From positions 55,880 to 119,879 of the forward strand of contig JABIBA010000013.1 of assembly GCA_018652955.1 (NCBI GenBank): a stretch of 64,000 nucleotides of DNA. Direction: 5' to 3'. Every line of letters starts with the position of its first letter. Within the stretch, counting starts at the first letter, position 1. A model generated the notes under the pieces. It saw only the letters and a list, made by a program, of their open reading frames with translations. It was not told the origin of the DNA and did no database searches. The position numbers and the translations under genes were made by a program. The stretch comes from Candidatus Peribacter sp. GTDB taxonomy: Bacteria > Patescibacteriota > Gracilibacteria > Peribacterales > Peribacteraceae. This document shows positions 14,714-63,925 of the stretch, one piece after another.

Positions 14714-14731
14714 TCTGCTATCCTCTGTGCG

Positions 14732-27911: not shown

Positions 27912-29378
<1,467 letters not shown>

Positions 29379-41568: not shown

Positions 41569-42153
41569 TTAGGCAGGGAAGAGATGATCTTCGACGAGTT
41601 CACAGATGAGGTGTTCTATGACGATATGACTCTCTTGTGTGCATTGGGTGTCTTCTCCTGGCACTGCAACGGTGTGTGTAGAGTCACAGGAAAGCCCTGC
41701 ACTTCCTGTTAATCCAATGGTTACGAGACCACGTTTTGCAGCTTCTTCACAAGCGAGTACTACATTTTTTGATGATCCACTGGTAGTAATCCCGAGGAGC
41801 ACATCACCTTCTTTTCCGAGTGCTTCTACCTGACGCGCAAATATTCCTTCGAAGTTGATGTCGTTTGCAAAGGCCGTAAGAAACGATGTATCTGTTGTAA
41901 GAGCTATTGCAGGCAGTGCATCCCTTGGTCGGTCTTTACGAAGTCTGCTAGTAAACTCTGCAGCCATATGTTGTGAATCTGCAGCGCTCCCACCGTTTCC
42001 GCAAATCAATAACTTGTTACCATTTTTAAAGGCAGTGCTGATGAGATCTGCTGCCTCTAGAATACTTGGAATACACTCAGTAGCTACAGCTTCCAAGGTT
42101 TTCGTACTACGTTCCAGATGACTCTGGATGGTGGCGGTGCGTGGATCTGTCAT
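41569..42153 (-). CDS. gmhA: SIS-domain sedoheptulose-7-phosphate isomerase (GmhA family)
   Basis: LLICGNGGSAADSQHMAAEF...RPRDALPAIALTTDTS...NDINFEGIFARQVEALGKEGDVLLGITTSGSSKNV closely tracks E. coli GmhA as I recall it. Confidence 0.8.
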   Translation of the reverse strand: MTDPRTATIQSHLERSTKTLEAVATECIPSILEAADLISTAFKNGNKLLICGNGGSAADSQHMAAEFTSRLRKDRPRDALPAIALTTDTSFLTAFANDINFEGIFARQVEALGKEGDVLLGITTSGSSKNVVLACEEAAKRGLVTIGLTGSAGLSCDSTHTVAVPGEDTQCTQESHIVIEHLICELVEDHLFPA

Positions 42154-42155
42154 GA

Positions 42156-43010: not shown

Positions 43011-43032
43011 GCAGGAGTAGTGTGCCTATGTA

Positions 43033-43866
43033 TTATCGGACAGTCCACCCACCATCTACAGAAATTCCTTGGCCTGTTATATAGCTTCCAGCATCAGAAG
43101 AAAGCAGTAAAAGGGCTCCAATTAGCTCTCTGGGCACTCCTGTGCGACCGAGACAGGTTTTGTCGTTCAAGACTTTTAGGAAGGGGGCATTTGGATCAAC
43201 GGCATTTGCTCCAGTTCCTTCAGTATTTGCGAAGGGTCCTGGGTGGATGGCATTTACACGAATGCCATGCTCTCCCCAGAAGGATGCCGCATATCTGGTG
43301 AGCTGCATAAGAGCTGCTTTTGCAGAGCCATATCCTGCAGGGTTCATCTTATCAGTTCCTCTATAGAGTGCAGGGTCTGGAGCAACAATCGAGTACATCG
43401 TGCATGTATTTATTATACTTCCGTTACCCTTCTCTTTCATTCCAGGGAACACTGCTTGCATTGCAAGGACAGGTCCTGTCATTCCCCCAGAAAGATTATT
43501 GTTAAAGTGTTCAAGTGGTGCAGTTTCGAGTGCCGCACCCGGTTGGTTAAACCCACAACCTGGTCCCATCTCGTGTGCGTTATTGACGAGCACATCGACA
43601 GTACCTGTTTTTGCTACTGCTTCACCGAGAGTGTTTTTAAGAACGTCTGTGTCGTACATGTCGACGGTGTATCCATCGACTTGTGCCTCTCCAAATTCAT
43701 TTGCGAGTTCTGTTTTTAAAGCCTCCAGTTTTTCTGATCTTCCAAATAGAATAACCTTCGCATCATTTTCTACAAGTGAACGTGCCATTTCGGAGCCTAG
43801 AAAACCAGATGCTCCTGTGAGGAGAACAGTTTTACCTTGAAGAGAAAAGAGATCTGAAGCTTTCAT
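43033..43866 (-). CDS. Short-chain dehydrogenase/reductase
   Basis: TGASGFLGSEM and YGSAK motifs. Start set at MKASDL so as not to overlap the upstream gene. Confidence 0.8.
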   Translation of the reverse strand: MKASDLFSLQGKTVLLTGASGFLGSEMARSLVENDAKVILFGRSEKLEALKTELANEFGEAQVDGYTVDMYDTDVLKNTLGEAVAKTGTVDVLVNNAHEMGPGCGFNQPGAALETAPLEHFNNNLSGGMTGPVLAMQAVFPGMKEKGNGSIINTCTMYSIVAPDPALYRGTDKMNPAGYGSAKAALMQLTRYAASFWGEHGIRVNAIHPGPFANTEGTGANAVDPNAPFLKVLNDKTCLGRTGVPRELIGALLLLSSDAGSYITGQGISVDGGWTVR

Positions 43867-43882
43867 AAGAGTACGGGGAAGA

Positions 43883-44683
43883 TTACCAGCAAGTACGGCC
43901 ACCATCGACAACAAGATTTTGTCCGGTCATATACGATGAAGCATCACTGCAAAGAAATAGCACTGCACCTTGGTACTCTGTCTCTTGTGCCATGCGACCA
44001 AGTGGAATGCGTGAAGAAATATCTTTAACAAATTCTGGAGGCTGACTTGTGTATACGCCACCAGGAGAAAGTGCGTTTACGCGAACGTGTGGGCAGTAAT
44101 AGGTGGAGAAGTATTTTGTAAGACCGACAAGCCCTGCTTTTGCCACACTGTATGTTACAGGTTTTACAGCTTGCTCATCTTCGGGCACACCTTCTTTTCT
44201 ATAGAGTCTTTGGTCGGGGGCTGACACAGAAAGCTCTGACGCAATATTTAAGATCACACCAGACTTTTGTTTCATCATCTGTTCACCAAATGCTTGAACA
44301 CAGAGGAACGCACCGAGAAGACCAACATTCAAATCATCTACCCACTGCTCGAGAGGGAAGTTGCTTACGCGAGAGAAGTTTACCTTTGCGCCTGCTTCTA
44401 CTTTCGGGTTATTTGCTGCGTTATTGACGAGGATATCTACCTTCCCATATTTTCCCATTACGGTTTCAAATGCTTGTTGTACAGAGTCTTGGTCTGCGAT
44501 GTTGGTTTCTATAAATAGCGCATCAAGTTCATCAGCGATCTTCTGACCACTTTCTGCGTTATGTTCCAGAATAACAGGGATACCACCAGCTGCTTTAATG
44601 GCCTCGCAGTGCCGTCTTCCCAAAAGTCCTCCACCGCCTGTTACGACAGCGACGCGTCCTGTGAGGTCAAATAGCGTATTCAT
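43883..44683 (-). CDS. Short-chain dehydrogenase/reductase
   Basis: VTGGGGLLG, NNAA and YSVAKAG motifs. Confidence 0.85.
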   Translation of the reverse strand: MNTLFDLTGRVAVVTGGGGLLGRRHCEAIKAAGGIPVILEHNAESGQKIADELDALFIETNIADQDSVQQAFETVMGKYGKVDILVNNAANNPKVEAGAKVNFSRVSNFPLEQWVDDLNVGLLGAFLCVQAFGEQMMKQKSGVILNIASELSVSAPDQRLYRKEGVPEDEQAVKPVTYSVAKAGLVGLTKYFSTYYCPHVRVNALSPGGVYTSQPPEFVKDISSRIPLGRMAQETEYQGAVLFLCSDASSYMTGQNLVVDGGRTCW

Positions 44684-44696
44684 CGGGCGAATTGTA

Positions 44697-45524
44697 TCAC
44701 GCTACGCCAAATGTCTGCGTTGAAAAAGTGTGATATTTGCGTATTTGCTCTACTTCTTTCCCTTCTTCTCCACGAGCCCCCTGGAGCGTAAACAGTCCGT
44801 CAAACTGCAGTCGGTCGAGTTCTTCTTTTACCGCTGCGAAGTCTGTATCACCTGTACCGAGTTCTACGGTGGAGCTGTTGAGTATGCGGTCTTTGATGTG
44901 CACACTACCAAGATGTTCCCCGTAGGCGGCAAGTTCTTCTTTGGGGTTATACCCCATCCCTGCACTGTTACCGGTGTCGTACGTTACTTTTACGCTTGGG
45001 TGATTGATTTGCTTCAGGAAGTACACAAAATTTTCTGGATCAAGTGACGTCTCTAGGTGGAGTTCCATATCTAACTTCTCCAGTACTGGAAGAATCGATT
45101 GTAGAGCAAGAGCTGCTTGGTCGATTTCTTCTTTGGTATTGAGGGCAGAGTTATCGAGAAATGGAATTCCAAGATGCGCAGCGCCTACTTTTTTTGCTTG
45201 ATGAAATAGAAGGTCTAAAAGCTGTAGTCGCTCTTCACGTTCTTGCTCTGTGCAACGAACAAGCGGCTCTTCCATAAACGAGTCTGCACAAATAGATGGA
45301 ATAGCAACACCGTACTTCTTCATCAGCGCTAACATCTCCTCTACTCCTTCATCTGTTCTAAGTGGAGTGATATCTGCTCCGTATGTATCATCAATCCATT
45401 CTATATTTGGAACACCTGCTTGCGCAGCACACGCAAATTCCTCTCGCCACGAATTTCTTGGGAACGATTGGAACCGTCCATCTTCTTGAGGGCTTAGTCG
45501 ATTATGCATTACTGCAAGTTTCAT
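44697..45524 (-). CDS. Xylose-isomerase-like TIM-barrel sugar (phosphate) isomerase/epimerase
   Basis: 275 aa. HLETSLDP...VTYDTGNSAG...HIKDR is the pattern of the AP_endonuc_2 / sugar epimerase fold. Confidence 0.7.
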   Translation of the reverse strand: MKLAVMHNRLSPQEDGRFQSFPRNSWREEFACAAQAGVPNIEWIDDTYGADITPLRTDEGVEEMLALMKKYGVAIPSICADSFMEEPLVRCTEQEREERLQLLDLLFHQAKKVGAAHLGIPFLDNSALNTKEEIDQAALALQSILPVLEKLDMELHLETSLDPENFVYFLKQINHPSVKVTYDTGNSAGMGYNPKEELAAYGEHLGSVHIKDRILNSSTVELGTGDTDFAAVKEELDRLQFDGLFTLQGARGEEGKEVEQIRKYHTFSTQTFGVA

Positions 45525-46687
45525 TATTTCTTGGCGGCTAATAACTTGTCACTGAATTCGCGAACAGCACCTTGGCCGCCTGGTGTGGATAGCACTATGC
45601 GAGCAGCGCCAAGTACAGATGGGTCTGCATCTGCAACAACAACAGGGAAACCCACCATGTGCAGACACTCTAAATCGTTCATGTCATTACCGAGGTAGGC
45701 AACTTTGGAAGCATCGATATTTTCTTTCTGGAGATACTCCGTAAGATACTTTGCTTTGTTGCCGATGCCTTGATGACATGGAAGCTGTAACTTTTCGCAT
45801 CGCAGCTTTACGATCGGATGTTTCTCTGTAGAGAGAACAATCATTGGAATGTTTGCATCGCGGAGATGATCTATTCCTAATCCGTCACTGCGGTTGCAAC
45901 GGACAAACTCATCACCATTTTCTGTGACTTCTACTTTGTTGTCGGTCATTACTCCATCAAAATCAAATACGACGAGTTCGATGTCGCTTGGCCAGTCGGC
46001 TTTGTCTTGTCGTACAATCCATCGTACGAGGTCTACTTGCTGTGCAGTATCTACTTGGAACGAGTGAAACTCGTCCATTAAATATACACTGGTCTTTCCG
46101 CCAAGGCGGTTGCCTTTTTCCCTAAGGAGAGAGGTTTTAGTGACATAGAGTGATCCGTTTTCTCTGTACTGTTCTTCCATATCTTGCTCACGTTTTCGAG
46201 TTTCGTAATCGTAATTTAACGATTTCAAACCATCTGATGCTTTGTTCCAAATAAGTGCGTAGTTTCTGCAGGCAGAAAAGATAGAATCTACATCTTCATC
46301 AATCAGTTGTTGAATAGCATTGTCGATATCATCTTCTTTGCGCACGGGTGATGTGCATTGTAAAAAGACGACGAGGTCTGGGTCTTCTTTTCCTTGTTTC
46401 TTTCGTTCATCAAGTACATGCAGCAAAGCAGATTCACTTGTTGCTGTAGCTGATGCAAGTTCCTCTGTTCGCGTAATAACTTCTGCACCGTACTTTTTTG
46501 CTTCGCGTGTAATCTCTGCATCTTCTGTAGAGACAATCACTTCATCAACAAGCTTTGCGCTGCGCGCGTGCAATATGCTGTGTGCCAAAATTGGAATACC
46601 GGCGAGTGGTAGTAAGTTTTTCCCAGGGATACGTTCGGACCCTCCGCGGGCAGGGATGATTACGATGACGGAAATGTCGGTGCTCAT
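45524..46687 (-). CDS. Fusion of an acylneuraminate-type cytidylyltransferase (N-terminal) and a KdsC-like HAD sugar-acid phosphatase (C-terminal)
   Basis: N-terminus: VIIPARGGSERIPGKNLLPLAGIPILAHSI (CMP-sugar synthetase). C-terminus: VVFDFDGVMTDNKV...SDGLGI...YLGNDMNDL...GGQGAVREF (KdsC/YrbI-type HAD). Confidence 0.85.
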   Translation of the reverse strand: MSTDISVIVIIPARGGSERIPGKNLLPLAGIPILAHSILHARSAKLVDEVIVSTEDAEITREAKKYGAEVITRTEELASATATSESALLHVLDERKKQGKEDPDLVVFLQCTSPVRKEDDIDNAIQQLIDEDVDSIFSACRNYALIWNKASDGLKSLNYDYETRKREQDMEEQYRENGSLYVTKTSLLREKGNRLGGKTSVYLMDEFHSFQVDTAQQVDLVRWIVRQDKADWPSDIELVVFDFDGVMTDNKVEVTENGDEFVRCNRSDGLGIDHLRDANIPMIVLSTEKHPIVKLRCEKLQLPCHQGIGNKAKYLTEYLQKENIDASKVAYLGNDMNDLECLHMVGFPVVVADADPSVLGAARIVLSTPGGQGAVREFSDKLLAAKK

Positions 46688-51560: not shown

Positions 51561-53384
51561 TTGGCTATTCTTATGGAAGAAATACCTCAAACATCGATAG
51601 GTCAGTTAAAGTTTCTTCTTCGGAAGATCCATTTTAAGCCGTGGTATATCGCAGTTCCTATTACTTTTGGCCTATTTGCTGCTGCATTTGAGGGTGTGGG
51701 TATGGGTTTGCTTATTCCTATACTTACTGGATTTCTGGATCAGAATTTTACATTCCTTCTAGAGACACCTGTACTTGGTAGTATCGTTAAGAAATTACCT
51801 GAGTCTATTCTTACGAATGACCGTCTCTTATTTCTGATATTGTTTTCTGCATTTATGACGGCGTACATTCTCCGGAGTAGCTTGCGATTTTTGTCGGTGT
51901 TTTCTATGGCGCATTTTTCCGAGCGTCTTGTACACCATCTACGTAAGTCTCTTTTTGTGCGATATCTGACTTTTGGAAAACTCTTCTTTGATACGACAAA
52001 TGTTGGGCATCATAGCGCAGTGTTTATGGAGTTTGCTCGCAAGTCTCTTCAGCCGCTCATTAGCTTAGACAAGTTTCTTAATGCACTGTTCGCACTCGTT
52101 GCATACCTTGTTGTAATGGTTACTATTTCGTGGAGACTCACTCTTATTGCTCTGCCACTCTTTTTGATGTTGCACCTTGTAGTGAAGTTTTTGGTTGTTC
52201 GTTTGCGCAAGCTCTCGCACGCAACTTCTTTGCGTGGTTCAGAACTCAACAGAAAATCGATTGAGATTCTTTCGACAATACCACTAGTCAAAGCGAATCG
52301 AACAGAGCGAGAGGAAATGGAGCGCTTTAAAGAGATTAGTGACCAGAAAGCACAATTAGATTTTCGTGGTAGCGTGTTTCTGTATGTGGTTCAGCCTATT
52401 CAAGAAATTGTTACGCTCATCGTAGCGTCGGCAATTTTCTTTGGTGCCATTTATGTTCTTGGACGAGATCAAATTGCGTCTGCCCCTGCAATCATTGTGT
52501 ATTTCTATACAGTGATTAATGCAACGAGTAAGTTTGGTACGGTGTCTGGGTACCGCGGTATTATTGCGCATGCAGCAGGTCAGTTGGAGGCTGTGGTGGA
52601 AGTGTTTAATGATGAGGGAAAGTTTTTCGTTAAAGATGGTACTGAAGAGCTTAAAGAAATAACAACGGGTATTGAATGTAAAGATCTTACCTTTTCTTAC
52701 ACCGATCGTTCTGTATTGGAACATGTGTCGTTTGAGATTGAAAAGGGAAAAATGACGGCCATTGTAGGACCTTCCGGAGCAGGTAAAAGTACTATCATTA
52801 ATTTGCTGATGCGGTTTTATGATTGCCCTCCTGGGACACTCTTTATCGATGGAAAAGATATTCGATCGTATACACTTGATTCCTATCTTGAACATGTCGG
52901 TATCGTAAGTCAGGAAACGTTACTGCTTCATGACACTCTTCGTCATAATATTCTATATGGATTGAGTGACGTCTCAGAAGATCAACTTCAAGATGCTCTA
53001 AAACGGTCTCAGCTTTCTGGGTTTATCGAGAAGCTTCCAGATGGATTGAATACTATAATTGGCGATAGAGGAGTAAAGCTTTCTGGCGGAGAGAAGCAGC
53101 GAATCTCCATTGCTCGTGCGCTTCTAAAAGGCCCAGAGATCCTTATTCTTGATGAAGCTACGAGCTCACTCGATAGCCAGACTGAGAAGCAGATCCAGGC
53201 AGCTATTGATGAGGCAGTCTCTGGTCGTACCGCTATTGTCATAGCCCACCGCCTATCGACGATTAAGCATGCAGATAAGATAATTACGATGAAAGACGGT
53301 CAATTGGCCGAAGAAGGCACTTTAGATGAGCTATTGGAGAAGAAAGGCGTATTCTACGGTCTCTGGCAGGAGCAGAAATTCTAG
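51561..53384 (+). CDS. Fused TMD-NBD ABC exporter (MsbA/PglK-like)
   Basis: Six N-terminal helices, then Walker A GPSGAGKST, signature LSGGEKQR, and Walker B ILILDEATS. Confidence 0.9.
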   Translation: MAILMEEIPQTSIGQLKFLLRKIHFKPWYIAVPITFGLFAAAFEGVGMGLLIPILTGFLDQNFTFLLETPVLGSIVKKLPESILTNDRLLFLILFSAFMTAYILRSSLRFLSVFSMAHFSERLVHHLRKSLFVRYLTFGKLFFDTTNVGHHSAVFMEFARKSLQPLISLDKFLNALFALVAYLVVMVTISWRLTLIALPLFLMLHLVVKFLVVRLRKLSHATSLRGSELNRKSIEILSTIPLVKANRTEREEMERFKEISDQKAQLDFRGSVFLYVVQPIQEIVTLIVASAIFFGAIYVLGRDQIASAPAIIVYFYTVINATSKFGTVSGYRGIIAHAAGQLEAVVEVFNDEGKFFVKDGTEELKEITTGIECKDLTFSYTDRSVLEHVSFEIEKGKMTAIVGPSGAGKSTIINLLMRFYDCPPGTLFIDGKDIRSYTLDSYLEHVGIVSQETLLLHDTLRHNILYGLSDVSEDQLQDALKRSQLSGFIEKLPDGLNTIIGDRGVKLSGGEKQRISIARALLKGPEILILDEATSSLDSQTEKQIQAAIDEAVSGRTAIVIAHRLSTIKHADKIITMKDGQLAEEGTLDELLEKKGVFYGLWQEQKF

Positions 53385-53429: not shown

Positions 53430-54131
53430 ATGGGAGTACTTGCAATTATCCCTGCTAGGGCAGGTTCGAAAACTATTCGGCATAAGAATATTCAGCTCGT
53501 AGGCGGAAAACCGCTTATCGTGCATTCTATCGAACACGGGCTTAAGAGCGGTTTAATCGATCGCGTGATCGTAAGTACCGACAGCGAAGAGTATGCAGAA
53601 CTTGCAAGGGCTGCAGGTGCTGAAGTTCCGTTTATGCGACCAGAGGAACTTGCAGGAGACCTCTCTACTGATCTTGAAACATTTAAACATGCATTGGAGT
53701 GGCTAAAAGAGCATGAAGACTATCACCCAGAGATTTGTGTAAACCTTCGCCCAACATTTCCATTACGAAAAATAGAAGACGTTGATGCTGTTGTTGCACT
53801 TCTGAAAGATCAGGAGAATCTTGATAGTGTTCGCAGCGTAGTTCCTGCATTGCACACGCCATACAAAATGTGGTTTACCGATGCGGATGGTACATTAAAG
53901 CCGATCATAGAACATGACATTGATGATGCACATAACCTGCCGCGTCAGGCCTTACCGAAGACCTATTTACAGAACGCTTGTATCGATGCAGTGCGCTCAT
54001 CAGTAATTCTTGAAAAAGATTCGATGTCGGGTGATACAATCTATGGGTATCACATGGAAGATTTCTTTGATATTGATACACCAGAAGACCTTAAGCGTGC
54101 GAACGAAGCACTTTCCCTTCTCCTAAAATGA
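53430..54131 (+). CDS. Acylneuraminate-type cytidylyltransferase (CMP-ulosonic acid synthetase)
   Basis: LAIIPARAGSKTIRHKNIQLVGGKPLIVHSIE is the typical NeuA/PseF/LegF/KdsB-like N-terminus. Confidence 0.85.
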   Translation: MGVLAIIPARAGSKTIRHKNIQLVGGKPLIVHSIEHGLKSGLIDRVIVSTDSEEYAELARAAGAEVPFMRPEELAGDLSTDLETFKHALEWLKEHEDYHPEICVNLRPTFPLRKIEDVDAVVALLKDQENLDSVRSVVPALHTPYKMWFTDADGTLKPIIEHDIDDAHNLPRQALPKTYLQNACIDAVRSSVILEKDSMSGDTIYGYHMEDFFDIDTPEDLKRANEALSLLLK

Positions 54132-55630
54132 ACAATCCATTATTCAATAAATTATTTGTATGTGATGTGGCGAACAACCACCAAGGTAGTGTCGATCATG
54201 GTCGTAAGATTATTGATGGAATGGCGAAGGTTGCAAAAGAAAACGATGTTCGCATTGGACTGAAGTTTCAGTTTCGTGAACTGGATAGTTTTATCCACCC
54301 TCAGTTTAAGGACAACAAAGACGTAAAACATATCGATCGATTTTTAAGTACACGTCTGAGTGCAGAAGAGTTTAACGGGATGGTGGAGTACGCAGCTGCA
54401 CAAGGCTTAACAACTATTGCAACTCCTTTCGATGAAGCATCTGTACAACAGTGTCTTGATTGCAATGTCGACATTATTAAAATTGCAAGTTGCAGCGCTC
54501 TCGATTGGCCATTACTTGAAGCAGTCGCGAATGCAGGTAAGCCAGTGATCATCTCTTCTGGTGGACTAGTCTTTGCAGAGATTGATAAGATCGTAAGCTT
54601 CTTAGAGCACAAGAATGTGGACTTTGCTCTTATGCATTGTGTAAGTGTGTACCCAACACCAAATACATTGGTGCACATGGAAACAGTACGTCGATTTAAA
54701 AATAGATACCCAACTATTCCTGTTGGATACAGTGGGCATGAGTCGCCAGAAAATAATGAGGTAGCTGTTGTTGCCATCTCTAAAGGTGCTCAGCTTATAG
54801 AGCGACATGTTGGGGTAGAGACAGAGGACATCAAGCTGAACGCGTACTCTATGACACAAGAGCAAACTGATGCATGGGTGAAGGCAGGGCTTCGTGCATG
54901 GGAGATTGCAGGAAATGACGAAAAGCAGGTTTCTGATGAGGAAAAGGCCTCTCTTGTTACCTTGATGCGTGGTACGTATGCTTCAAAGCCGATTAAAAAA
55001 GGCGATGTGGTAACTCCTGATGATGTGTACTTTGCGATGCCCCTACAAGACGGACAGCTTTGTAGTGGGGACTTTGGAAGCTATCGCAGTGTCTATACTG
55101 CGACACGTGACTACGCTCCTGACGAGCCAGTTGTAGAAACCTCTTCTCCTGACCCTATTCACTCTGTGCGTAATGCGATTCACAAGGCGAAGGGAATGCT
55201 GAATGAAGCGAGTGTGTGTATTGGTAATGAATGTAGTATTGAACTTTCTCACCACTATGGTCTCGATCGTTTCGAAGAAGTTGGAGCTACTATCATTAAT
55301 AGTATCAACCGTGAGTACTGCAAAAAGTTTATCGTAGTATTCGCTGGGCAAAAGCATCCACCACACAAGCACGAGAAGAAAGAAGAAACCTTCGAGGTTC
55401 TATGGGGAGACCTAGAGGTACATTTGGACGATGAAGTTCTCTTCTTAAAACCTGGGGACAGCGTCTTAGTAAAACGAAACACATGGCACAGTTTTTCTTC
55501 TGTAAATGGTGCAATCTTCGAAGAGATTTCTACAACACACTACCGTGATGATTCACACTACGAAGATGAGAACATCAGCAAAATGGATCCGATGGAACGT
55601 AAAACTCTTATCGATCCGTGGAACGGTTAA
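54128..55630 (+). CDS. NeuB-family synthase fused to SAF and a C-terminal sugar-isomerase-like cupin
   Basis: NeuB core: VANNHQGSVDHG...KFQFR...IKIASCS...IISSGG...YSGHE...ERHV. SAF-like segment: ASKPIKKGDVVTPDDV. C-terminal cupin: FAGQKHPPHKHEKKEETFEVLWGDLEVHL...GDSVLV..NTWHSF. Confidence 0.8.
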   Translation: MNNPLFNKLFVCDVANNHQGSVDHGRKIIDGMAKVAKENDVRIGLKFQFRELDSFIHPQFKDNKDVKHIDRFLSTRLSAEEFNGMVEYAAAQGLTTIATPFDEASVQQCLDCNVDIIKIASCSALDWPLLEAVANAGKPVIISSGGLVFAEIDKIVSFLEHKNVDFALMHCVSVYPTPNTLVHMETVRRFKNRYPTIPVGYSGHESPENNEVAVVAISKGAQLIERHVGVETEDIKLNAYSMTQEQTDAWVKAGLRAWEIAGNDEKQVSDEEKASLVTLMRGTYASKPIKKGDVVTPDDVYFAMPLQDGQLCSGDFGSYRSVYTATRDYAPDEPVVETSSPDPIHSVRNAIHKAKGMLNEASVCIGNECSIELSHHYGLDRFEEVGATIINSINREYCKKFIVVFAGQKHPPHKHEKKEETFEVLWGDLEVHLDDEVLFLKPGDSVLVKRNTWHSFSSVNGAIFEEISTTHYRDDSHYEDENISKMDPMERKTLIDPWNG

Positions 55631-56415
55631 GCAAGCTTGAAGTGATATACACCGACTGCGCCTTCTTGCTTTGCGTCTCCCATAAACGGGACACTGTAGT
55701 TTTCGAGCCACGATAGTAATTCGTCGATGCGCTCTTGCGGGATTTTCCAACCTGCATCGCGTGCAACATTGGGCAGACGCCTTTTAAAGTCTTCGACCAT
55801 CTTCATTCCACCTCCCCATTCGCGGTCTACTGTAGACCATTCTAAATTCATGCTGAGTTCTTTTGCCCATTCTTCAAAGTTAAGTGGTGTTAGGTAGTGC
55901 AAGTCTGCCAGTGTGATTGGTGCACGGAACAAGTGCCACAGTGTTTGCAGTATGTATCCTCTTGGGTTTAACCAGTTTGGACTCGTCATAATAAGTGAAC
56001 CTCCTGGGTTTAGTTTTTCTTTCCAAGCCTTCAACGTTCCTAGTGGGTCATCCATATGTTCAAGAGTTCCGTTTGAAATAATGACATCAAAAGTTTGTTC
56101 AATCTCATCAACATTAATACAGGCGTACTTGAGGTTCGGTGCTTCATATTTCTTTTGCGCTTCTTCAATGGCACTTTCTGCAAAATCTACTCCGAGTACA
56201 GATTTCGCTCCTGCATCGGAGATCAAAGCGCACATATCTCCGGTACCGCATCCTGCGTCCATGACATCTTTGTCTTCCCATGACATTAGGGCAAATACAG
56301 CAGAAAATTCATCAGGCATATCACCCTTTTGGAGACGAAAGTACGTGTAGTGCTCTTTCTCTCCTTTCTTGTATACACCGTCGTAGAATGCTTTCAGATC
56401 TGTATTCTTTTTCAT
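55627..56415 (-). CDS. Class I SAM-dependent methyltransferase
   Basis: VMDAGCGTGDM...GVDF...VIISNGTLEHM. Confidence 0.8.
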   Translation of the reverse strand: MKKNTDLKAFYDGVYKKGEKEHYTYFRLQKGDMPDEFSAVFALMSWEDKDVMDAGCGTGDMCALISDAGAKSVLGVDFAESAIEEAQKKYEAPNLKYACINVDEIEQTFDVIISNGTLEHMDDPLGTLKAWKEKLNPGGSLIMTSPNWLNPRGYILQTLWHLFRAPITLADLHYLTPLNFEEWAKELSMNLEWSTVDREWGGGMKMVEDFKRRLPNVARDAGWKIPQERIDELLSWLENYSVPFMGDAKQEGAVGVYHFKLA

Positions 56416-56494
56416 GAGCCAGATCCTATCACACCTATTTTGCGTTTTCCTGTAAATACTTGCTTCTTTACGGTATTTACCTCAATACTGGGGC

Positions 56495-57973
56495 GTGCCT
56501 AAGCCTATACGCGCCATCATTTCACACTTCTCGTTCGATTTCTCCTATGCAGCTATCGAGGCTGTTATGAAGGAACGTTCGTTTGAGCATTGTGCAATCA
56601 TCTCTACTCCAGAGGTTCCTCGGCATTTCAGTGGCCTACCTCAGGAGAACCAAGAGTGGTTTAACTCTAGTGATATTCGTGGGTGTGATTACGGTACTGT
56701 GCAGTGGGATACGTTGCTACCTCTCGACGAAGAACTTATCTATGCGATGTATCATTGCGAGGCACTGTTTATGGAAACGGTTTGTCGGCAAGAATGGAAA
56801 TATGAAATTACGTATACACAGCGAAAGCAGTGGTACCTCAAGCAGTTGCGATTTTGGAATGATTACATTCAGAAGCACAGTATTAATTTGTATCTTGCTG
56901 CGTGGCTTCCACATGAAGTTCCTGATGTGGTGATTTACCACCTCTGTAAATATTATGACGTGCCGATTGTGTATTTTCATATGGCGATAGAGCAGGACAC
57001 TGGGTTTATTGAGAGCGACATAGAAGAGTCTGCAGTACAGATACAGAAGCGTTTTATAGAGTTGCAAAAAGAGTACGTACAAGAACAAAATCCTCTAGCC
57101 ATTGAGTTAAACGAACAGTTTGCTGCGCGGTACGAAAACCTTACGGCGCTCGAAGCGCAAAAACCAATCCTCGAAAGCCTAAAACGTAAAACATACTTCG
57201 GAAACGTACTGGAGATGTTTCTGAAAAAACCTGTGCACGTTGTTAAATGCATTGGGTTGTTTTGTACTCCTTACGGGGTAACGCGCTTACAGAGAACATG
57301 GAAACGTCGTCGTATAATAAGAGAGCGTAATGCGTATTACACTAAATATGCTGTGCATCCAGATCTCTCACAGCCTTACGTATATGTTGCACTTCACTTT
57401 CAGCCAGAAGCATCTACTACTCCGATGGGTGGTGTGTTTGCTAATCAACTTCTTCTTGTGCAGATGCTTGATGCGCATCTACCCGAAGGTGTGTTTATTT
57501 ATGTCAAAGAACATCCGAAGGAGAGTTCATGGCTTAGTAGGAGTATCGAAGAGTACGAAAGTCTTGTGTCGATTCCTCGTGTGCGTCTCGTTGCCCGTGA
57601 GGTGGATACTTTTGCTCTGCGCGAACACTGCACAGCAGTGGGTACTGCTACGGGCTCTGTGGGGTACGAGGCTCTCTTTCGCAGTAAGCCAGTCTTTATG
57701 TTTGGTCATCGGTTTTATCAATATGCTAGTGGCGTCTACCGCATTCATATGGACATAGACTTACAAGAAGCAATTCAGGCAGTCTTTGAGCGAGGGGAGA
57801 CACCGACGCTTAAAGATGCGAGGCTCTATCTGAAAGCTATGGAGGATACGCGTGTGCATGGCACTGTAAACCCTTGGGATCGCAAAGTGTCTAAATTAAG
57901 CGACAAAGAGCATGCTAAGGCTTGTAGCATATCTATCCTTGAAAAACTGGCAGAAATAGAGTCTGAGGCTTAG
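56495..57973 (+). CDS. Capsule_synth (KpsC/KpsS/LpsZ)-like glycosyltransferase, paralog A
   Basis: [25 protein letters not shown] and [26 protein letters not shown] fit the LQ..D / K.HP / StvG.EAl..gkPv..G..fY layout of beta-Kdo-transferase-type capsule proteins. GTG start. Confidence 0.6.
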
Positions 57974-57986
57974 TATTGGACGTACC

Positions 57987-58892
57987 ATGAAGAATATGTC
58001 GCATATTCGGCAGCTTGAAGCGGAGAGCATCCATATTCTTCGTGAGGTCGTTGCGTCATTTGAAAACCCAGTAATGCTGTATTCGATTGGGAAAGATTCT
58101 TCCGTGCTTTTGCACCTTGCTCGTAAAGCGTTTCATCCTGGTAAGCCACCGTTCCCTCTATTGCACGTTGATACAACGTTTAAGTTTAAAGAGATGACTG
58201 CGTTTCGTGACTCGTACGTACGTGATGAGCTTGGACTTGATCTTATTGTGCATACAAATGCTGACGGAGTAGAGAAGCAGGTCACGCCGTTTTCTCATGG
58301 AAGTTCTGCTTACACCGACATAATGAAAACAGAAGGGTTACGACAGGCGATGAGCAAGCATGGTTTTGATGCTGCTATTGGTGGGGCGCGTAGAGACGAG
58401 GAAAAATCTCGCAGTAAAGAACGTGTATTTTCTTTTCGCAATGCAGATCAGAGATGGGATCCAAAATCCCAACGACCAGAATTATGGCACTTGTATAACA
58501 CGCGTGTGCGCACTGGAGAAAGTATGCGAGTATTCCCACTAAGTAACTGGACTGAAGTTGATGTATGGCTTTACATTCTCCTAGAGCAAATTCCGATTGT
58601 TCCACTCTACTTTGCTGCTAAGAGACCAGTGGTCGAGCGCGATGGGACACTCATCATGGTTGATGACGAACGGCTGCCGTTGCTTCCTGGAGAAACACCG
58701 AAAGAGAAAATGATTCGGTTCCGTACACTTGGTTGTTATCCGCTAACTGGAGCGAACGAGTCTACTGCGCAAACGGTATCAGAAATTATCGAAGAACTCT
58801 TAAGCTGCCCTAACTCCGAACGTTTCGATCGTCTTATCGATTTTGATCAACCCTCTTCTATGGAAGAAAAAAAGAAGGCAGGATACTTTTAG
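57987..58892 (+). CDS. cysD: Sulfate adenylyltransferase subunit 2
   Basis: [27 protein letters not shown], and [17 protein letters not shown], which is classical CysD/NodP. Confidence 0.93.
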
Positions 58893-58894
58893 TT

Positions 58895-60715
58895 ATGACT
58901 AATCCGTATGTCATTAACGGCCCAATCCAAAAGTTCTTGCAGCGGCATGAGCGGTGCGATCTTGTGCGTGTGCTTACATGTGGAAGTGTCGATGATGGAA
59001 AAAGCACATTGATCGGAAGACTTCTTCTTGATGCGAGTGTTCTTCCGAAAGATACACTTGCAGCACTCGAAAAAGATTCGAAGCAATACGGCACACAAGA
59101 TGGTGCGTTGGACCCCGCTCTTTTAATAGATGGATTAAAGGCAGAGCGTGAGCAGAAGATTACGATTGATGTTGCACATCGGTTTTTCTCTTCTGAGGAA
59201 CGGACATTTATCGTTGCAGATACTCCAGGACATGAGCAGTACACACGCAATATGGTGACAGCAGCTTCGAATGCAGACATGGTGATTATCCTTCTAGATG
59301 CACGTAATGGAGTACTAGAGCAGTCTCGTCGGCATGCCTTTATTGCCTCATTGCTTGGCATAAAACACGCCATAGTTGCGGTAAATAAGATGGACCTCGT
59401 AGACTTTTCTGAGGACGTTTTTGAGGAGATCAAGAAAGACTTCTTGGTCTTTGCAGAGCGATTGCAGATTACCGATCTGCACTTTGTGCCGTTGTCTGCT
59501 CTTTCTGGAGATAATGTCATGGACCCAAGTACAAACATGCCATGGTACAAAGGGGGAACATTGATGCACCTGCTTAATACGATTCATGTCGTTTCCGATC
59601 GTAACCTCATCGACTTTCGATTTCCTGTGCAGTATGTGTCTCGTCCGTCACCTGACTATCGAGCATTCAGTGGCACAGTGGCCTCTGGGTCTGTGCGACC
59701 AGGTGATGAGGTACTTGTACTCCCTAGTCATAAAACAACGCGTGTACAGTCTATAGATACCTTTGATGGAGAACTCAGTAAGGCGTCCGCACTTTCTGCT
59801 GTCACACTTCGTCTCGAAGATAATATTGATATTAGTAGAGGAGATATGATTGTTCCGGTGCACAATGTTCCAGAACAAAGTCGCCAGTTTGATGCATTTT
59901 TGGTCTGGATGGACGAAGAGTCTTTGCAAGACGATAAAGAATACATCATTAAGCACACGACAAAGATGACGACTGCGCGTATCCGAACGGTGCGGTATGT
60001 CATGGATGTTAATACATTACGCAGAGGTGAAGCGGCACCACTTACAGCAAATGACATCGGACGTTGTGCTCTAACTATTGCAGAGCCTTTGCCCATTGAT
60101 AGTTACGAACGTAACCGCATTACAGGCTCTTTCGTTCTGATTGATCCTGTTTCCCATCAAACCAGCGCCGCTGGAATGATTGTAGATAGAAAAACTGAAG
60201 AAGGATTAGAAGGCGAAGAATCCTCTGCACGTCAGACATCAGATTTTCCTATCCTCTGGCTTACAGGAAATACAGGTTCTGGAAAATCTACCCTTGCGCA
60301 AGCAGCCGAAAGGCACGTCAATCGAAGTGCTCCTTCTTGGAATGCTGCAGCACGAAAACTTGTCGTGCTTGATGGTGACGAGTTGCGTGAAACTATCTCA
60401 CTTGATGAAGACCTTTCTGCAGAAGGGCGCAGAAAACATAACTTGCGCACAGCACGTCTTGCAAAGCTTTTGCAGCAAAAAGGATTCCTTGTTGTCGTAT
60501 CGGTTATTGCACCGTTTGAGTCTTTACGAAAAGAGATAGATGCCATCTGCAAACCTCAGTGGATTTATGTTGAGCGGTCTGGCATCACATCAGAAGACAG
60601 GCCATACGATGTGCCTAGCAACCCAGATTTTACTGTAAATACAGATACGCTAAACGAGCAAGAAGGCACACAGTCGTTTATTGACTATATGGTAGATGTG
60701 CTCGGAAACGATTAG
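58895..60715 (+). CDS. cysNC: Bifunctional sulfate adenylyltransferase subunit 1 (GTPase) / APS kinase
   Basis: GSVDDGKSTLIGRLL, DTPGHEQY and NKMD (CysN). The C-terminal P-loop is GNTGSGKSTLA, with LDGDELRE (APS kinase). NodQ-like fusion. Confidence 0.93.
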   Translation: MTNPYVINGPIQKFLQRHERCDLVRVLTCGSVDDGKSTLIGRLLLDASVLPKDTLAALEKDSKQYGTQDGALDPALLIDGLKAEREQKITIDVAHRFFSSEERTFIVADTPGHEQYTRNMVTAASNADMVIILLDARNGVLEQSRRHAFIASLLGIKHAIVAVNKMDLVDFSEDVFEEIKKDFLVFAERLQITDLHFVPLSALSGDNVMDPSTNMPWYKGGTLMHLLNTIHVVSDRNLIDFRFPVQYVSRPSPDYRAFSGTVASGSVRPGDEVLVLPSHKTTRVQSIDTFDGELSKASALSAVTLRLEDNIDISRGDMIVPVHNVPEQSRQFDAFLVWMDEESLQDDKEYIIKHTTKMTTARIRTVRYVMDVNTLRRGEAAPLTANDIGRCALTIAEPLPIDSYERNRITGSFVLIDPVSHQTSAAGMIVDRKTEEGLEGEESSARQTSDFPILWLTGNTGSGKSTLAQAAERHVNRSAPSWNAAARKLVVLDGDELRETISLDEDLSAEGRRKHNLRTARLAKLLQQKGFLVVVSVIAPFESLRKEIDAICKPQWIYVERSGITSEDRPYDVPSNPDFTVNTDTLNEQEGTQSFIDYMVDVLGND

Positions 60716-61680
60716 AAATAGGTCCCAGGACAGAGAGTCTCAAGCTGCAGGTTGTGCTCATTGTTTAGCAGTGTATTAGATTCTTTAAAGTAGGCATGGA
60801 GATCTTTTCGGAGTTGCTCGTCATGTACTTTTTTGTTTCCTAGTAGCGCAAAAGAGAGCTTCGATTGCAACATGTTGCGTACAAGAGAGACATCCAGTTT
60901 TCCAATACCAGGTACACGAATATTTGGAATAAGTGGGCTCTCGTTAAATGCAGAACGTACAAATCGATTTAAGAATCTTGCGGTTGCAATTTGCCTGCTG
61001 CCGTATCCTTTGTTTTGGTGACGGTCATCAAATTGCATATCTTCTGTGCCCATCCAATTCGTAATTTTTTGCACAAAAGCATGATTATCTTTTTTGAGTA
61101 ATTCAAACGGAAGAACTAATACATTCTCTTTACCAAAACATTCTGCGTAATAGCCTATTGCCGGTTTGTAATCTAGTTGATGAATACTGATACCGGATAA
61201 CCATCTCTTTGTTAGAGTTTCAAAAGATCCATCGTCGTAGCGAAGGAAATTGCGCAGGGGCTTTCTTCCGCCTAGGTGAACGTATTGTTTGTACAAAGAG
61301 ATCGCGAGATCATATTGATTACGTACAACGAATAACACTTTAGCCTTTGGAAATACTGTTGATAGGCGAGTGGCAATTACTTTTCCATTAACAAAATGAT
61401 CGAGAGATGCGTCACCACCAATAAATGCTTCGTGGGAGATGATGTTTTTCCCTGGGTGGCATGCTGCAGTTATTTCTTTTGACGTTTGTGCTTCACGGAA
61501 GTGGTATGCATCTGAATACATGATATCGCAGAATGCATCAGGGCAACTGTTGTAATTTACATAGTGCATGTCTTTGATATGTGGAAACACCTCTTTCTGT
61601 AGAAAGGTAGAACCTGTCTTTAGGTATCCCACATGAAGAAAGATTTCGTTGTTCATTGCTGTAGTATTGCTGTGGGTCAT
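60712..61680 (-). CDS. PAPS-dependent sulfotransferase-like protein
   Basis: The N-terminus HVGYLKTGSTFLQ resembles the 5'-phosphosulfate-binding loop. VVRNQYDLAISLYKQY resembles the 3'-phosphate-binding motif. Convergent with cysNC, with overlapping stops. Confidence 0.7.
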   Translation of the reverse strand: MTHSNTTAMNNEIFLHVGYLKTGSTFLQKEVFPHIKDMHYVNYNSCPDAFCDIMYSDAYHFREAQTSKEITAACHPGKNIISHEAFIGGDASLDHFVNGKVIATRLSTVFPKAKVLFVVRNQYDLAISLYKQYVHLGGRKPLRNFLRYDDGSFETLTKRWLSGISIHQLDYKPAIGYYAECFGKENVLVLPFELLKKDNHAFVQKITNWMGTEDMQFDDRHQNKGYGSRQIATARFLNRFVRSAFNESPLIPNIRVPGIGKLDVSLVRNMLQSKLSFALLGNKKVHDEQLRKDLHAYFKESNTLLNNEHNLQLETLCPGTYF

Positions 61681-63152
61681 AGCTCTGTAAATAGCGGTGT
61701 CAGTGTCTTGTGTATAATTTTGCCAGTGTCTATCAGGTACGTATTTTGGAGATCTCTCTGTTTATCGGTAGCAGGCTTCATGATGTATGGAGTACTTGCA
61801 TCTTGCATCGCTTTGAGAAATAGACGTAAATCATGCAGAGAAGGAGTTTCTTCGTCTTGAAAAATACTTTGTACTGCATTTCGGCAGTCATCATTAGTAT
61901 GAATTCTATAGATACCTGGTGCGTATTGATAAAACCGGTGCCCAAACATCAGTACAGGCTTTTCTCGAAATATTGCTTCTATACCTACAGTTCCAGTCAC
62001 TGTTGCTACTGCTTTTGCATTTCGCATCAACTGAAAAGTATCTGTATTACGAGGCATGAATTTCACTGAAGGTATTTGTAATAGCGTGCGATAAAACTCT
62101 TCGCTTCTGCATAATTCCCCTTGGGCAGGGTGCTCTTTAATGTAAATATTTACGCCAGGAGGTATGTGCGCAGCAAGCATCTGCATAATTAATTCTTGGT
62201 TTTGAAATGCTCCACCCCTAGGTGAAACAGACTCCTCCGGTTGCATATGCAGCGGAGCATAAATATATGGTGAAGAAAAATCTGGTTTTTCGACGTGGTC
62301 ATCATAAAATTGTGTCATTCGATGCTCTTTAAGTTTCCGAGACCAAACATTTGCAGAGCATAGTGAGGAGAAAAATTGCTTTGGTTTGTGGCGCAATGTC
62401 GATAACCCTTTTCGGTACCACTTTGTAAGAAAATGTTTTTTAGTGAGATGCTTTTCTCTTAGGGGAGTGCTTTGTGCAGCAATATCTTTTGTAGTTTGTA
62501 CTTTATAAAAATCTTCGTACGACTGAGATAGAGGAATAGGAAGTGATGGGTCACTATATTCTTGTTGCAACTTCTTGAATGCAGGGAGTAGTTGCTCACC
62601 AGATATTTCAAAATCTTGTAGCAGGGAAATCCCATCTACTACTAGATAGTGCTCCAAAAAATATGTTGGAATGCCTTTGAGTTTGCAGAGCATGTAGATC
62701 ACATAATCGTAGCATTGGTGTGGTGCATGAAATAACAGCAATAGATTAATATCTTCATTCTCGAGTGTGTGATTCCAATAGCGTAGGTGGTCTAAGTATT
62801 GTTGCCTTCGCTCTCGATACGGTATTTCACCGTGCAATGCGTAACGTTCTATCATAGAGAGAAACCCTATTTCGCAGTGACGCATTTTTTCTATAAGTTT
62901 TTCATCTAACGGTTTATACTTTGTCCAATCTATTTCTGGATAACGCCCAGCTCTCAAATCTTTTGCTGACATCCATTGTATATCTTGCGCATCAATATCG
63001 GGTGTGTACTCTTCTCCATTAGTGATGGAAATGCACTTCCCAATTTTACGATTGAGAAAAGCTTCTGTAACTATTTTCTTATGAAGTGGTCCGTCGAATG
63101 CCTTTAGAATAATATTCACCATTTCGATTCTATAAAAGAAATATGTACCCAT
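61677..63152 (-). CDS. Capsule_synth (KpsC/KpsS/LpsZ)-like glycosyltransferase, paralog B
   Basis: Collinear with paralog A over its full length: [64 protein letters not shown] overlap with the sulfotransferase. Confidence 0.6.
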   Translation of the reverse strand: MGTYFFYRIEMVNIILKAFDGPLHKKIVTEAFLNRKIGKCISITNGEEYTPDIDAQDIQWMSAKDLRAGRYPEIDWTKYKPLDEKLIEKMRHCEIGFLSMIERYALHGEIPYRERRQQYLDHLRYWNHTLENEDINLLLLFHAPHQCYDYVIYMLCKLKGIPTYFLEHYLVVDGISLLQDFEISGEQLLPAFKKLQQEYSDPSLPIPLSQSYEDFYKVQTTKDIAAQSTPLREKHLTKKHFLTKWYRKGLSTLRHKPKQFFSSLCSANVWSRKLKEHRMTQFYDDHVEKPDFSSPYIYAPLHMQPEESVSPRGGAFQNQELIMQMLAAHIPPGVNIYIKEHPAQGELCRSEEFYRTLLQIPSVKFMPRNTDTFQLMRNAKAVATVTGTVGIEAIFREKPVLMFGHRFYQYAPGIYRIHTNDDCRNAVQSIFQDEETPSLHDLRLFLKAMQDASTPYIMKPATDKQRDLQNTYLIDTGKIIHKTLTPLFTEL

Positions 63153-63202
63153 GATTTTTGCTCAAAATTGCCCCTCTTCCTACAATTTTGTTCTTTTAAT
63201 TC

Positions 63203-63925
63203 ATGGCAATGATTTATAATGCGATGTATCATTCATTTATGTTAAAAACTGTCAAAAACGCAGTATATAAAGGATTAAAGGCTAATAGCTCCGATTGCTC
63301 TCTCCATCCTTGTGTTAGTTATAACAACATTATCAAGACGCTATATTTACAGAGAATGCTTGCCCACGTGCAAGATATTCCTGGCGATGTAGTGGAGTGC
63401 GGTGTAGGAAAAGGTGAGAGCTTATTGATATTCACTTCCCTGCTTCAGGCAACTGGAAGTAAAAAGCATGTTTGGGGATTTGATTCCTTTGAAGGATTTC
63501 CAGAGCCTTCAAAGGAAGATGACAGTATCCGCAATCCTAAAAAAGGTGAATGGAGTGATACCAGTTTGACTGGCGTATTAGGCATGTTGCGTGAGGCAGG
63601 GTTTAGCCCATTAGATCTTCGGAAGAACGTTACTCTTGTACAAGGTTTTTTTAACGAAAGCTTATCGAAGTACAGAGGCGATACTATTGCACTTCTTCAT
63701 GTTGATGTTGATTTATATCAATCATATATAGATGTCTTAAGCGCTCTCTATCCTAAAGTGATTAAGGGGGGAGTTGTTATGTTTGATGAATACATGAGCA
63801 CTGGCGATCAGTTACGTTTTCCTGGAGCTCAAAAAGCGATAGATGAGTATTTTGGAGATAGGGTTTCTTGGATACAGAGAGATGAAGGTATGGGAAAATA
63901 CTATCTCATAAAGCAAGAAGATTAA
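63203..63925 (+). CDS. TylF/MycF-family O-methyltransferase
   Basis: GDVVECGVGKGESL, GFDSFEGFPEP and LHVDVDLYQSY...GGVVMFDEY form the macrocin-O-methyltransferase-like motif set. Confidence 0.75.
   Translation: MAMIYNAMYHSFMLKTVKNAVYKGLKANSSDCSLHPCVSYNNIIKTLYLQRMLAHVQDIPGDVVECGVGKGESLLIFTSLLQATGSKKHVWGFDSFEGFPEPSKEDDSIRNPKKGEWSDTSLTGVLGMLREAGFSPLDLRKNVTLVQGFFNESLSKYRGDTIALLHVDVDLYQSYIDVLSALYPKVIKGGVVMFDEYMSTGDQLRFPGAQKAIDEYFGDRVSWIQRDEGMGKYYLIKQED

Follow-up and report, generated by a model that had tools for sequence, protein, structure and literature searches.

A probable dedicated glycan-sulfation cassette in a nonulosonic-acid surface-glycan island of Candidatus Peribacter

Introduction

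Dedicated genes for the synthesis of 3′-phosphoadenosine 5′-phosphosulfate (PAPS) stand beside a sulfotransferase in rhizobia (NodP/NodQ with NodH) and in Xanthomonas (RaxP/RaxQ with RaxST). Here, we describe a comparable set of genes in Candidatus Peribacter sp., located in a stretch of 64,000 nucleotides of contig JABIBA010000013.1 (positions 55,880 to 119,879; assembly GCA_018652955.1), hereafter called the window. As in the rhizobial and Xanthomonas systems, a CysD and a CysN–adenosine 5′-phosphosulfate (APS) kinase copy lie beside a PAPS-dependent sulfotransferase, and PAPS would be made for a secreted or surface molecule and not for cysteine. In contrast to these systems, the host is a reduced-genome member of the Candidate Phyla Radiation (CPR), the genes lie in a nonulosonic-acid glycan island instead of serving a lipochitooligosaccharide or a peptide, and the short kinase, which has no lid, is particular to Peregrinibacteria. 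Curated families show no relation of the sulfotransferase itself to NodH, as it matches no NCBIfam family. The original prediction for this stretch held the architecture to be without described precedent; the comparison shows it to be a variant of the NodPQ–NodH and RaxPQ–RaxST logic. A known principle is thus extended and no new one is introduced, since PAPS genes with a sulfotransferase were already known from rhizobia and Xanthomonas. New are the CPR host, the nonulosonic-acid context, the clade-specific short kinase, and the transferases with an HxQPE motif.

These transferases are two paralogs, here termed A and B, that bracket the sulfation genes. The literature characterizes the retaining ulosonic-acid transferases of families GT99, GT107, GT118, and GT140 by two motifs, HP and an invariant QXXXD whose Asp acts as the nucleophile (PMC10148158, PMC12887879). 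With KpsC/KpsS (GT107) and WbbB (GT99), A and B share the PF05159 domain, the HP motif, and the S/T-x-G-F-E-A-L block behind it. Also common to both sides would be a modified GT-B fold and an acidic residue at the nucleophile position, and on both sides two non-redundant homologous modules occur side by side. Unlike KpsC/KpsS and WbbB, they have H-x-x-x-E (HxQPE) where those enzymes have Q-x-x-x-D, and their N-terminal half lacks detectable sequence similarity. Their neighbors also suggest nine-carbon NeuB-type acids and not the 3-deoxy-D-manno-oct-2-ulosonic acid (Kdo) of KpsC/KpsS, and no Kps export system lies in the region.

KpsS1 of Acinetobacter baumannii (GT118) is, according to the summary in PMC12887879, a retaining Pse5Ac7Ac transferase (Walklett et al. 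2024). Judged by that summary, KpsS1 resembles A and B in its relation to PF05159, in its use of a nonulosonic acid activated with cytidine monophosphate (CMP), the likely kind of donor for A and B, and in being encoded with pseudaminic acid genes, as A and B follow PseB/C/G-H/I-like genes in three related loci (L001, L003, and L087; L numbers are our labels for loci). A and B, at ~490 aa, form a family of their own, mostly in Peregrinibacteria.

The sulfotransferase shares with the heparan sulfate 3-O-sulfotransferases (3-OST), the heparan sulfate N-sulfotransferase (NST) domain, and PDB entry 3rnl its fold, its PAPS-binding loops, and a Glu, not a His, at the position of the candidate base. 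In the heparan sulfate N- and 3-O-sulfotransferases, the catalytic base is a glutamate. The identity to these proteins is 12–16% at TM-scores of 0.5–0.7, and an ~80-residue C-terminal helical extension is specific to the bacterial family found in the window. Sialylation and sulfation co-occur in sludge polymers (PMC10483923), and sialic acid genes have been mentioned in Peribacter, which is placed in Peregrinibacteria, within the CPR (PMC4736985). Proteins identical to the sulfotransferase and the CysN–APS kinase of the window are recorded under Candidatus Peribacter sp. on a contig of 698 kb, and the CPR-like genome supposed in the original prediction is in keeping with this placement.

Results

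Architecture of the cassette

The cassette consists of five genes, in coordinates of the window:

56495-57973, plus strand: A-type paralog, 492 aa, GTG start, gene 1 of the plus-strand operon

57987-58892, plus strand: cysD, sulfate adenylyltransferase small subunit, 301 aa

58895-60715, plus strand: cysN–APS kinase fusion (cysNC), 606 aa

60712-61680, minus strand: PAPS-type sulfotransferase, 322 aa, gene 2 of the minus-strand operon

61677-63152, minus strand: B-type paralog, 491 aa, gene 1 of the minus-strand operon

The original prediction had described five tightly packed open reading frames (ORFs), delimited by two facing, collinear paralogs of about 490 aa, and all of its coordinates are borne out. 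A and B share 35% identity along their entire length (E 1e-97). Read from the DNA, 13 nt separate the A-type gene from cysD and 2 nt separate cysD from cysNC, all on the plus strand. The convergent stop codons overlap, with TAG at 60713-60715 on the plus strand and TAA at 60712-60714 on the minus strand, and in the ATGA at 61677-61680 the stop of paralog B overlaps the start of the sulfotransferase gene. For the latter, the JGI call gives 322 aa, and the NCBI call places the start 8 codons downstream, giving 314 aa.

A consensus scan of positions 56300-63300 returned no promoter or terminator signal above the shuffled expectation (promoters, 11 vs 14.6; terminators, 8 vs 5.2), and the operon boundaries are therefore drawn from gene spacing. 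We also looked for a signal of recent horizontal insertion in the base composition and none is evident, the GC content of the cassette being 0.42–0.46 against ~0.44–0.45 around it.

Linkage of PAPS genes, sulfotransferases, and nonulosonic-acid genes

The cassette is embedded in a glycan island that runs from ~30.2 kb to the end of the window, with ~33 kb of glycan genes around the cassette. In total, the island holds three NeuB genes, two CMP-synthetases, and an ATP-binding cassette (ABC) exporter. Genes of these kinds recur together in other Peregrinibacteria:

L087: cysD-cysNC beside PseI/G-H/C/B-like genes, with an A/B pair 8 kb away

L088: cysD-cysNC-hisH-hisF-sulfotransferase-NeuB-cytidylyltransferase

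L089: B/A-family paralog, a gene of unknown function, CysQ-like phosphatase, cysD, cysNC, Sulfotransfer_2 protein, GT4 genes

L053: adjacent genes for a paralog, a sulfotransferase, a short kinase that stands alone, and a CysQ-like phosphatase

L008: orthologue of the window sulfotransferase (64% identity) and a standalone short kinase

All three further members of the CysNC clade that were located (L087, L088, and L089) lie in nonulosonic-acid islands, and at least four different types of sulfotransferase have been recruited across the Peregrinibacteria loci. Pseudaminic sets of PseB/C/G-H/I-like genes are found in L001, L003, L087, and L088, and the window contributes a NeuB–cupin fusion, a PseF-like gene, and legionaminic-like genes. 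The repeated linkage of PAPS genes, sulfotransferases, and nonulosonic-acid genes is our main argument that PAPS is made for the decoration of glycans, and we consider it probable that the locus in the window is a dedicated glycan-sulfation cassette of the surface-glycan island.

The original prediction had proposed that PAPS is made here to sulfate a glycan containing ulosonic acids. The occurrence of cysDNC genes within glycan islands, both here and in other Peregrinibacteria, makes a dedicated supply the best reading; the production of PAPS itself is the part that we word with more reserve, given the lid-less kinase.

In the proposed sequence of events, CysD and CysN would adenylylate sulfate to APS, driven by GTP hydrolysis, and the fused short kinase domain would phosphorylate APS to PAPS. 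The soluble sulfotransferase would then transfer sulfate to a glycan intermediate, at one of its hydroxyl or amino groups, on the cytoplasmic side. A and B would add ulosonic acids that are derived from NeuB-type synthases and activated by the adjacent CMP-synthetases, and the finished anionic glycan would leave the cell through the MsbA/PglK-like ABC exporter. Parts of this scheme are inferred, namely PAPS production by the lid-less kinase, the glycan of the island as acceptor, the sugars that A and B would transfer, and the route of export.

A bolder variant of this scheme places the sulfate on the nonulosonic acid itself or on its CMP-precursor, takes A and B as a new family of glycosyltransferases in which the nucleophile motif is HxxxE, and has a minimal lid-less PAPS synthase evolve within the CPR. 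We regard this variant as rather unlikely; we know of no sulfated sialic-acid-like sugar described from a prokaryote.

Two further observations concern these loci. In some Peribacteria, namely at L042 (16233-17090, minus strand), L008 (11472-11774, minus strand), and L053 (12331-12828, minus strand), the short APS kinase is either a gene by itself or joined to a CTP_transf_like-resembling domain of ~110 aa, with no CysD or CysN within 10 kb of these three loci. A protein family of ~420 aa without a Pfam match (for example, L087 17592-18860) is represented by 27 ORFs across the nonulosonic-acid loci examined, including L017, L025, L031, L032, L040, L053, L087, and L088, and no homologue of it was found in the window.

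CysD, CysN, and the short APS kinase

CysD scores 503 bits with NF009214 (cut-off 413), contains a PAPS_reduct domain (E 4e-54), and shows the PP-loop SIGKDS in its translation. The fusion protein as a whole scores 726 bits with NF004035 (cut-off 715) and is composed of two parts:

58895-60226, plus strand: cysN part, GTPase subunit of ATP sulfurylase (GTP_EFTU E 6e-40, GTP-eEF1A_C E 4e-23)

60227-60715, plus strand: short APS-kinase domain fused to CysN, with P-loop, DGDxxR, and RPYxxP kept and the canonical lid absent

The CysN part reaches 584 bits with TIGR02034 (cut-off 336), and the G1 (GSVDDGKST), G3 (DTPGH), and G4 (NKMD) motifs are present in the translation. The CysNC proteins of this clade have 590–606 aa and share 53–68% identity, and the members that carry a taxon label are Peregrinibacteria. 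Their next relatives are Planctomycete enzymes of 645 aa at 48–50% identity.

The kinase domain is recognized by Pfam as APS_kinase (E 1e-19), with only profile positions 4-98 of 152 matched, and the standalone APS-kinase models of NCBIfam score below their cut-offs. Alignments to PDB chains break between query residues 112 and 125, corresponding to chain residues 110 and 146, so that 12 residues are found where the canonical enzymes have 36. An alignment of the Peregrinibacteria clade with Planctomycete CysNC and with Escherichia coli CysC places here a deletion of ~22–25 aa that includes RDxKGLYxKARxGE and is common to the whole clade, whether the kinase is fused or standalone. The P-loop, DGDxxR, the HNxR helix that follows it, and RPYExP are all retained in the alignment.

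The loss of the lid and the truncated Pfam match lend some weight to a kinase domain that is a dead structural or regulatory remnant. The cassette would then end at APS, and the sulfotransferase would use APS or another donor, or a separate cysC elsewhere would provide PAPS. Some ATP sulfurylases carry inactive APS-kinase-like domains, and the PDB matches include 3cr8 and 1m8p/1i2d. Against such a remnant speaks, besides the retained motifs, the standalone short form (52–55% identity), which directly adjoins sulfotransferases and a CysQ-like phosphatase and would be unexpected for a mere scaffold. A dead kinase thus seems improbable to us. Since conservation of the short kinase extends to copies encoded on their own, with sulfotransferases and a gene resembling those of PAP (adenosine 3′,5′-bisphosphate) phosphatases as neighbors, it is probably active, and the lid-less kinase of the cassette would make PAPS. 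The earlier assignment of these genes to PAPS synthesis accordingly stands for CysD and CysNC, which pass the curated models, and is softened for the last step by the ~22–25 missing lid residues.

The sulfotransferase

The sulfotransferase exceeds the Pfam gathering thresholds of both Sulfotransfer_1 (38.5 bits vs 22, E 1e-9) and Sulfotransfer_3 (32.4 bits vs 27, E 1e-7). The PAPS-binding residues are kept: the 5′-phosphosulfate-binding (5′-PSB) loop reads H-x-G-x-x-K21-T-G-S-T, and R120 and S128 of the 3′-phosphate-binding (3′-PB) motif are invariant in an alignment of 28 sequences. In the same alignment, S82-x-E84 is invariant, and E84 is a candidate for the glutamate base. The AlphaFold2 (AF2) model has a mean predicted local distance difference test score (pLDDT) of 86.6, and the top Foldseek matches are 3rnl and the heparan sulfate NST and 3-OST structures with PAP, at a probability of 1.0 and TM-scores of 0.5–0.7. 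The gene, earlier called sulfotransferase-like, therefore encodes a protein with the fold of the carbohydrate sulfotransferases. As no membrane segment is found in it, sulfation should be cytoplasmic and precede export.

The acceptor is not readable from the sequence, and the family is large and uncharacterized (3002 clusters at E<=1e-30). The enzyme could in principle act on a lipid, on a protein tyrosine as RaxST does, or on a small molecule, the flanking paralogs being unrelated neighbors. This is unlikely in view of the overlap between its start and the stop of the B-type glycosyltransferase, and of its closest structures, which are carbohydrate sulfotransferases with a Glu base. Its relatives at 41–78% identity, moreover, are all in nonulosonic-acid islands, and a relative at 39% identity (L009) is in another glycan cluster.

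Paralogs A and B belong to the KpsC/KpsS superfamily

Both paralogs score above the gathering threshold of 20 bits for PF05159 (Capsule_synth), with 37.2 bits for A and 50.0 bits for B. The alignment covers only the C-terminal Rossmann half (residues 320-411 in paralog A). No other Pfam family matches at E<=0.01, and NCBIfam has no family for either protein. An identity as TagF-type Glyphos_transf was considered and dropped, there being no match to it at the same threshold. When paralog B is compared with the sequences in the PDB, KpsC is the sole family matched. K339-E-H341-P342 of paralog B aligns with V-K-V-H-P of KpsC, which is the CMP-binding HP motif, and the TGTxGxEAxFRxKPVxxFG segment of the paralogs aligns with the corresponding KpsC block (S/T-x-G-x-E-A-L).

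A literal QXXXD is absent from paralog B; the sequence P-L-H302-M-Q304-P-E306 follows the first strand of its C-terminal domain. In an alignment of 62 sequences, E306 is invariant and H302, Q304, H341, and P342 are at least 90% conserved. On two registers, E306 would correspond to D160 and H302 to Q156 of KpsC: one is the count from the end of the preceding strand, and the other the distance to the His of the HP motif (35 residues vs 34 in KpsC). This equivalence is based on the published KpsC peptide and the secondary structure of the model, and not on a superposition of coordinates.

The AF2 model of paralog B, computed from the 62-sequence alignment, has a pLDDT of 93.6 and shows two Rossmann-like halves in a GT-B fold. 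All top Foldseek matches are GT-B proteins. The highest TM-scores are those of KpsC (8fux/6mgd, 0.48) and WbbB (0.38–0.39), although even these values are low as such. Sorted by Foldseek E-value, UDP-GlcNAc 2-epimerases come first; we do not adopt an epimerase function and read this rank as generic GT-B likeness combined with differences in domain orientation, the sole sequence-level matches in the PDB being KpsC. Neither paralog has segments resembling transmembrane helices. A and B, which have no literal QXXXD, are thus members of the KpsC/KpsS superfamily, predicted to be soluble GT-B proteins, and putative glycosyltransferases that use CMP-ulosonic acids.

The original prediction had read the HFQPE/HMQPE, KEHP, and TG(S/T)VG.EA(L/I) motifs, all of which are present in the paralogs, as the Capsule_synth layout of beta-Kdo transferases. 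The PF05159 scores, the HP motif, and the GT-B model, whose closest structures by TM-score are KpsC and WbbB, sustain the superfamily; the Kdo label fares less well, given HxQPE and the NeuB-type neighbors. If A and B were true retaining beta-Kdo transferases of the KpsS/KpsC kind, they would make a poly-Kdo linker on a lipid, like that of the group 2 capsules of Gram-negative bacteria, and two non-redundant paralogs do recall KpsS with KpsC or the two modules of KpsC. This is an unlikely assignment. The residues at the QXXXD position read H-x-Q-P-E with an invariant Glu, and the window contains neither a KdsA-type gene nor KpsMTED-type export genes. Furthermore, the pair in relatives directly follows complete pseudaminic-acid gene sets. 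The likely donors of A and B are nonulosonic acids, because their neighbors are NeuB-type synthases and CMP-synthetases, including the PseF-like cytidylyltransferase, and not Kdo genes.

A conserved A/B frame with variable cargo

Homologues of the paralogs are overwhelmingly found in Peregrinibacteria, with scattered occurrences in other CPR groups, cyanobacteria, Bacteroidales, and others. Two copies lie within 10 kb of each other in 34 of the 76 species-level genome loci. We scored 32 two-copy loci (genome loci together with L001, L003, and L007), and 29 of them pair one A-type with one B-type gene, nearly always in convergent orientation. This partnership points to an old duplication and to proteins that are non-redundant. 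NeuB homologues lie within 10 kb of the paralogs in 56/76 loci and an ABC exporter is near in 36/76, and in L001 and L003 the A/B pair comes directly after a pseudaminic-acid gene set.

The interval between A and B ranges from ~20 nt to 9 kb, and its cargo consists of GT4 transferases, methyltransferases, a cytidylyltransferase, an epimerase, or genes of unknown function. As this cargo differs between loci, the mirrored arrangement is a conserved frame with variable content. The cysD-cysNC-sulfotransferase cargo is found only in the lineage of the window and in its relative L007, which has the identical five-gene order with proteins 75–85% identical to those of the window. The mirrored frame is therefore not tied to sulfation, the convergent A/B pair being conserved in Peribacteria irrespective of what it encloses.

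In L003, a Patescibacteria contig, the A/B pair has a polysaccharide pyruvyl transferase and a CysQ-like Inositol_P gene as neighbors (13081-15104, minus strand), and no sulfotransferase is seen there. Negative charge may instead be added to the same kind of glycan by pyruvylation.

Sulfur metabolism and other genes of the window

In agreement with the original prediction, no cysH or sulfite reductase gene was found among the ORFs of at least 150 aa in the window searched against Pfam, nor was a sulfate permease, and only CysD matches PAPS_reduct. The 10-kb flanks of four related cysDN or kinase loci are likewise free of cysH, sulfite reductase, and sulfate transporter genes. Judged from the window and these flanks, housekeeping sulfate assimilation, in which cysD and cysNC would feed cysteine synthesis through cysH and a sulfite reductase elsewhere and their position would be incidental, is very improbable even if CysD and CysNC are orthodox by curated models. 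Four further Peregrinibacteria lineages have the clade-specific cysD-cysNC or its kinase in nonulosonic-acid islands, beside sulfotransferases and CysQ-like phosphatases and never beside cysH or cysI. Assimilation requires an APS kinase only where a PAPS reductase is used, and the genes here are tightly packed, or overlapping, with those of a glycosyltransferase and a sulfotransferase. The published study of the complete genomes of Peribacter speaks of the synthesis of sialic acid and not of sulfur assimilation (PMC4736985).

The glycan genes adjacent to the cassette, and a further module in the island, are as follows:

51561-53384, plus strand: MsbA/PglK/HepA-like half ABC exporter (ABC_membrane and ABC_tran)

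53430-54131, plus strand: CMP-ulosonic acid synthetase, PseF/NeuA-like (CTP_transf_3 E 2.5e-25)

54128-55630, plus strand: divergent NeuB-family synthase fused to a cupin (NeuB E 6e-44, Cupin_2 E 5.5e-12)

55627-56415, minus strand: S-adenosylmethionine-dependent methyltransferase (Methyltransf_23/11/25), divergent from the A-type paralog and in the same position in L001 and L007

63203-63925, plus strand: TylF-type O-methyltransferase (TylF E 1.7e-30), divergent from the B-type paralog and followed by legionaminic-acid-like genes beyond the window end

41569-46687, minus strand: SIS_2 isomerase, short NeuB without SAF domain, two short-chain dehydrogenases/reductases, xylose-isomerase-like TIM barrel, and cytidylyltransferase–HAD phosphatase fusion

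The ABC exporter matches the NCBIfam models of the HepA family (E 1.5e-134), MsbA (E 1e-111), and PglK (E 5e-63), in each case below the cut-off, and is likely the flippase or exporter of the glycan. For the CMP-ulosonic acid synthetase, the best NCBIfam model is PseF (E 1.6e-39, below the cut-off), and the KdsB models reach only E 1e-14. In the NeuB–cupin fusion, a C-terminal cupin replaces the usual SAF domain, and the protein scores far below the equivalog cut-offs of NeuB and PseI; together with a cytidylyltransferase, it adjoins the A/B pair in L001, L007, and L089 and is also present on the contig of L008.

The module at 41569-46687 looks like a second, separate pathway of the island, predicted to lead from a sugar phosphate to a CMP-ulosonic acid similar to 2-keto-3-deoxynonulosonic acid (Kdn). 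It is followed by a GT-B protein (40261-41565, minus strand) with weak matches to TagF-type Glyphos_transf (E 2e-8) and alpha-2,8-polysialyltransferase (E 2e-5), a candidate third transferase of CMP-sugar acids whose inclusion would match the number of NeuB genes. The island also encodes GT2 and GT4 transferases, a C-methyltransferase, several other methyltransferases, two GDP-mannose-dehydratase-like proteins, and a DegT aminotransferase. A protein of 584 aa with about nine membrane-spanning segments and no Pfam match (34746-36500, minus strand) could be a polymerase, a ligase, or a GT-C-like enzyme. On a longer public contig, the island extends past the end of the window with the legionaminic-acid-like set and the third NeuB.

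The remainder of the window contains the housekeeping genes SSB, MurB, MurG, FtsW, GluRS, SecA, and SufBD. A complete 16S rRNA gene is found at 27912-29378 on the minus strand (RF00177, 1468 bits), without a neighboring 23S gene in the window, and accounts for a local rise of the GC content to 0.50. A protein of 1347 aa with an N-terminal hydrophobic segment and no Pfam match (350-4393, minus strand) could be a surface protein.

Discussion

Our analysis favors a dedicated glycan-sulfation cassette in Candidatus Peribacter, and several observations weigh against it. The lid of the kinase is deleted throughout the Peregrinibacteria clade, and we know of no biochemical assay of such a short enzyme. 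The 64-kb window encodes no CysQ-type PAP phosphatase, and no sulfate uptake gene was seen in the window or the flanks examined. The L009 relative of the sulfotransferase is part of a glycan cluster without NeuB genes, and the chemistry of A and B may differ from that of KpsC and WbbB, the literal QXXXD being absent. All support comes from sequence and structural models of an uncultivated organism.

CPR bacteria probably live attached to other cells, and very little is known of the chemistry of their surfaces. A literature search of incomplete coverage returned nothing relevant on sulfotransferases or PAPS in CPR/Patescibacteria, which is no proof of novelty. The cassette predicts that some Peregrinibacteria spend ATP and GTP on the sulfation of a sialic-acid-like glycan, and that a reduced genome can retain a PAPS pathway purely for decoration. 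At the level of the enzymes, it predicts that an APS kinase without a lid is still functional and that a family of KpsC-like transferases has exchanged the Asp/Gln catalytic motif for Glu/His. If the sulfate indeed sits on the nonulosonic acid, as in the bolder variant above, a strongly anionic coat would be a trait of Peregrinibacteria lineages, and it could matter for attachment to the host or for the evasion of phages.

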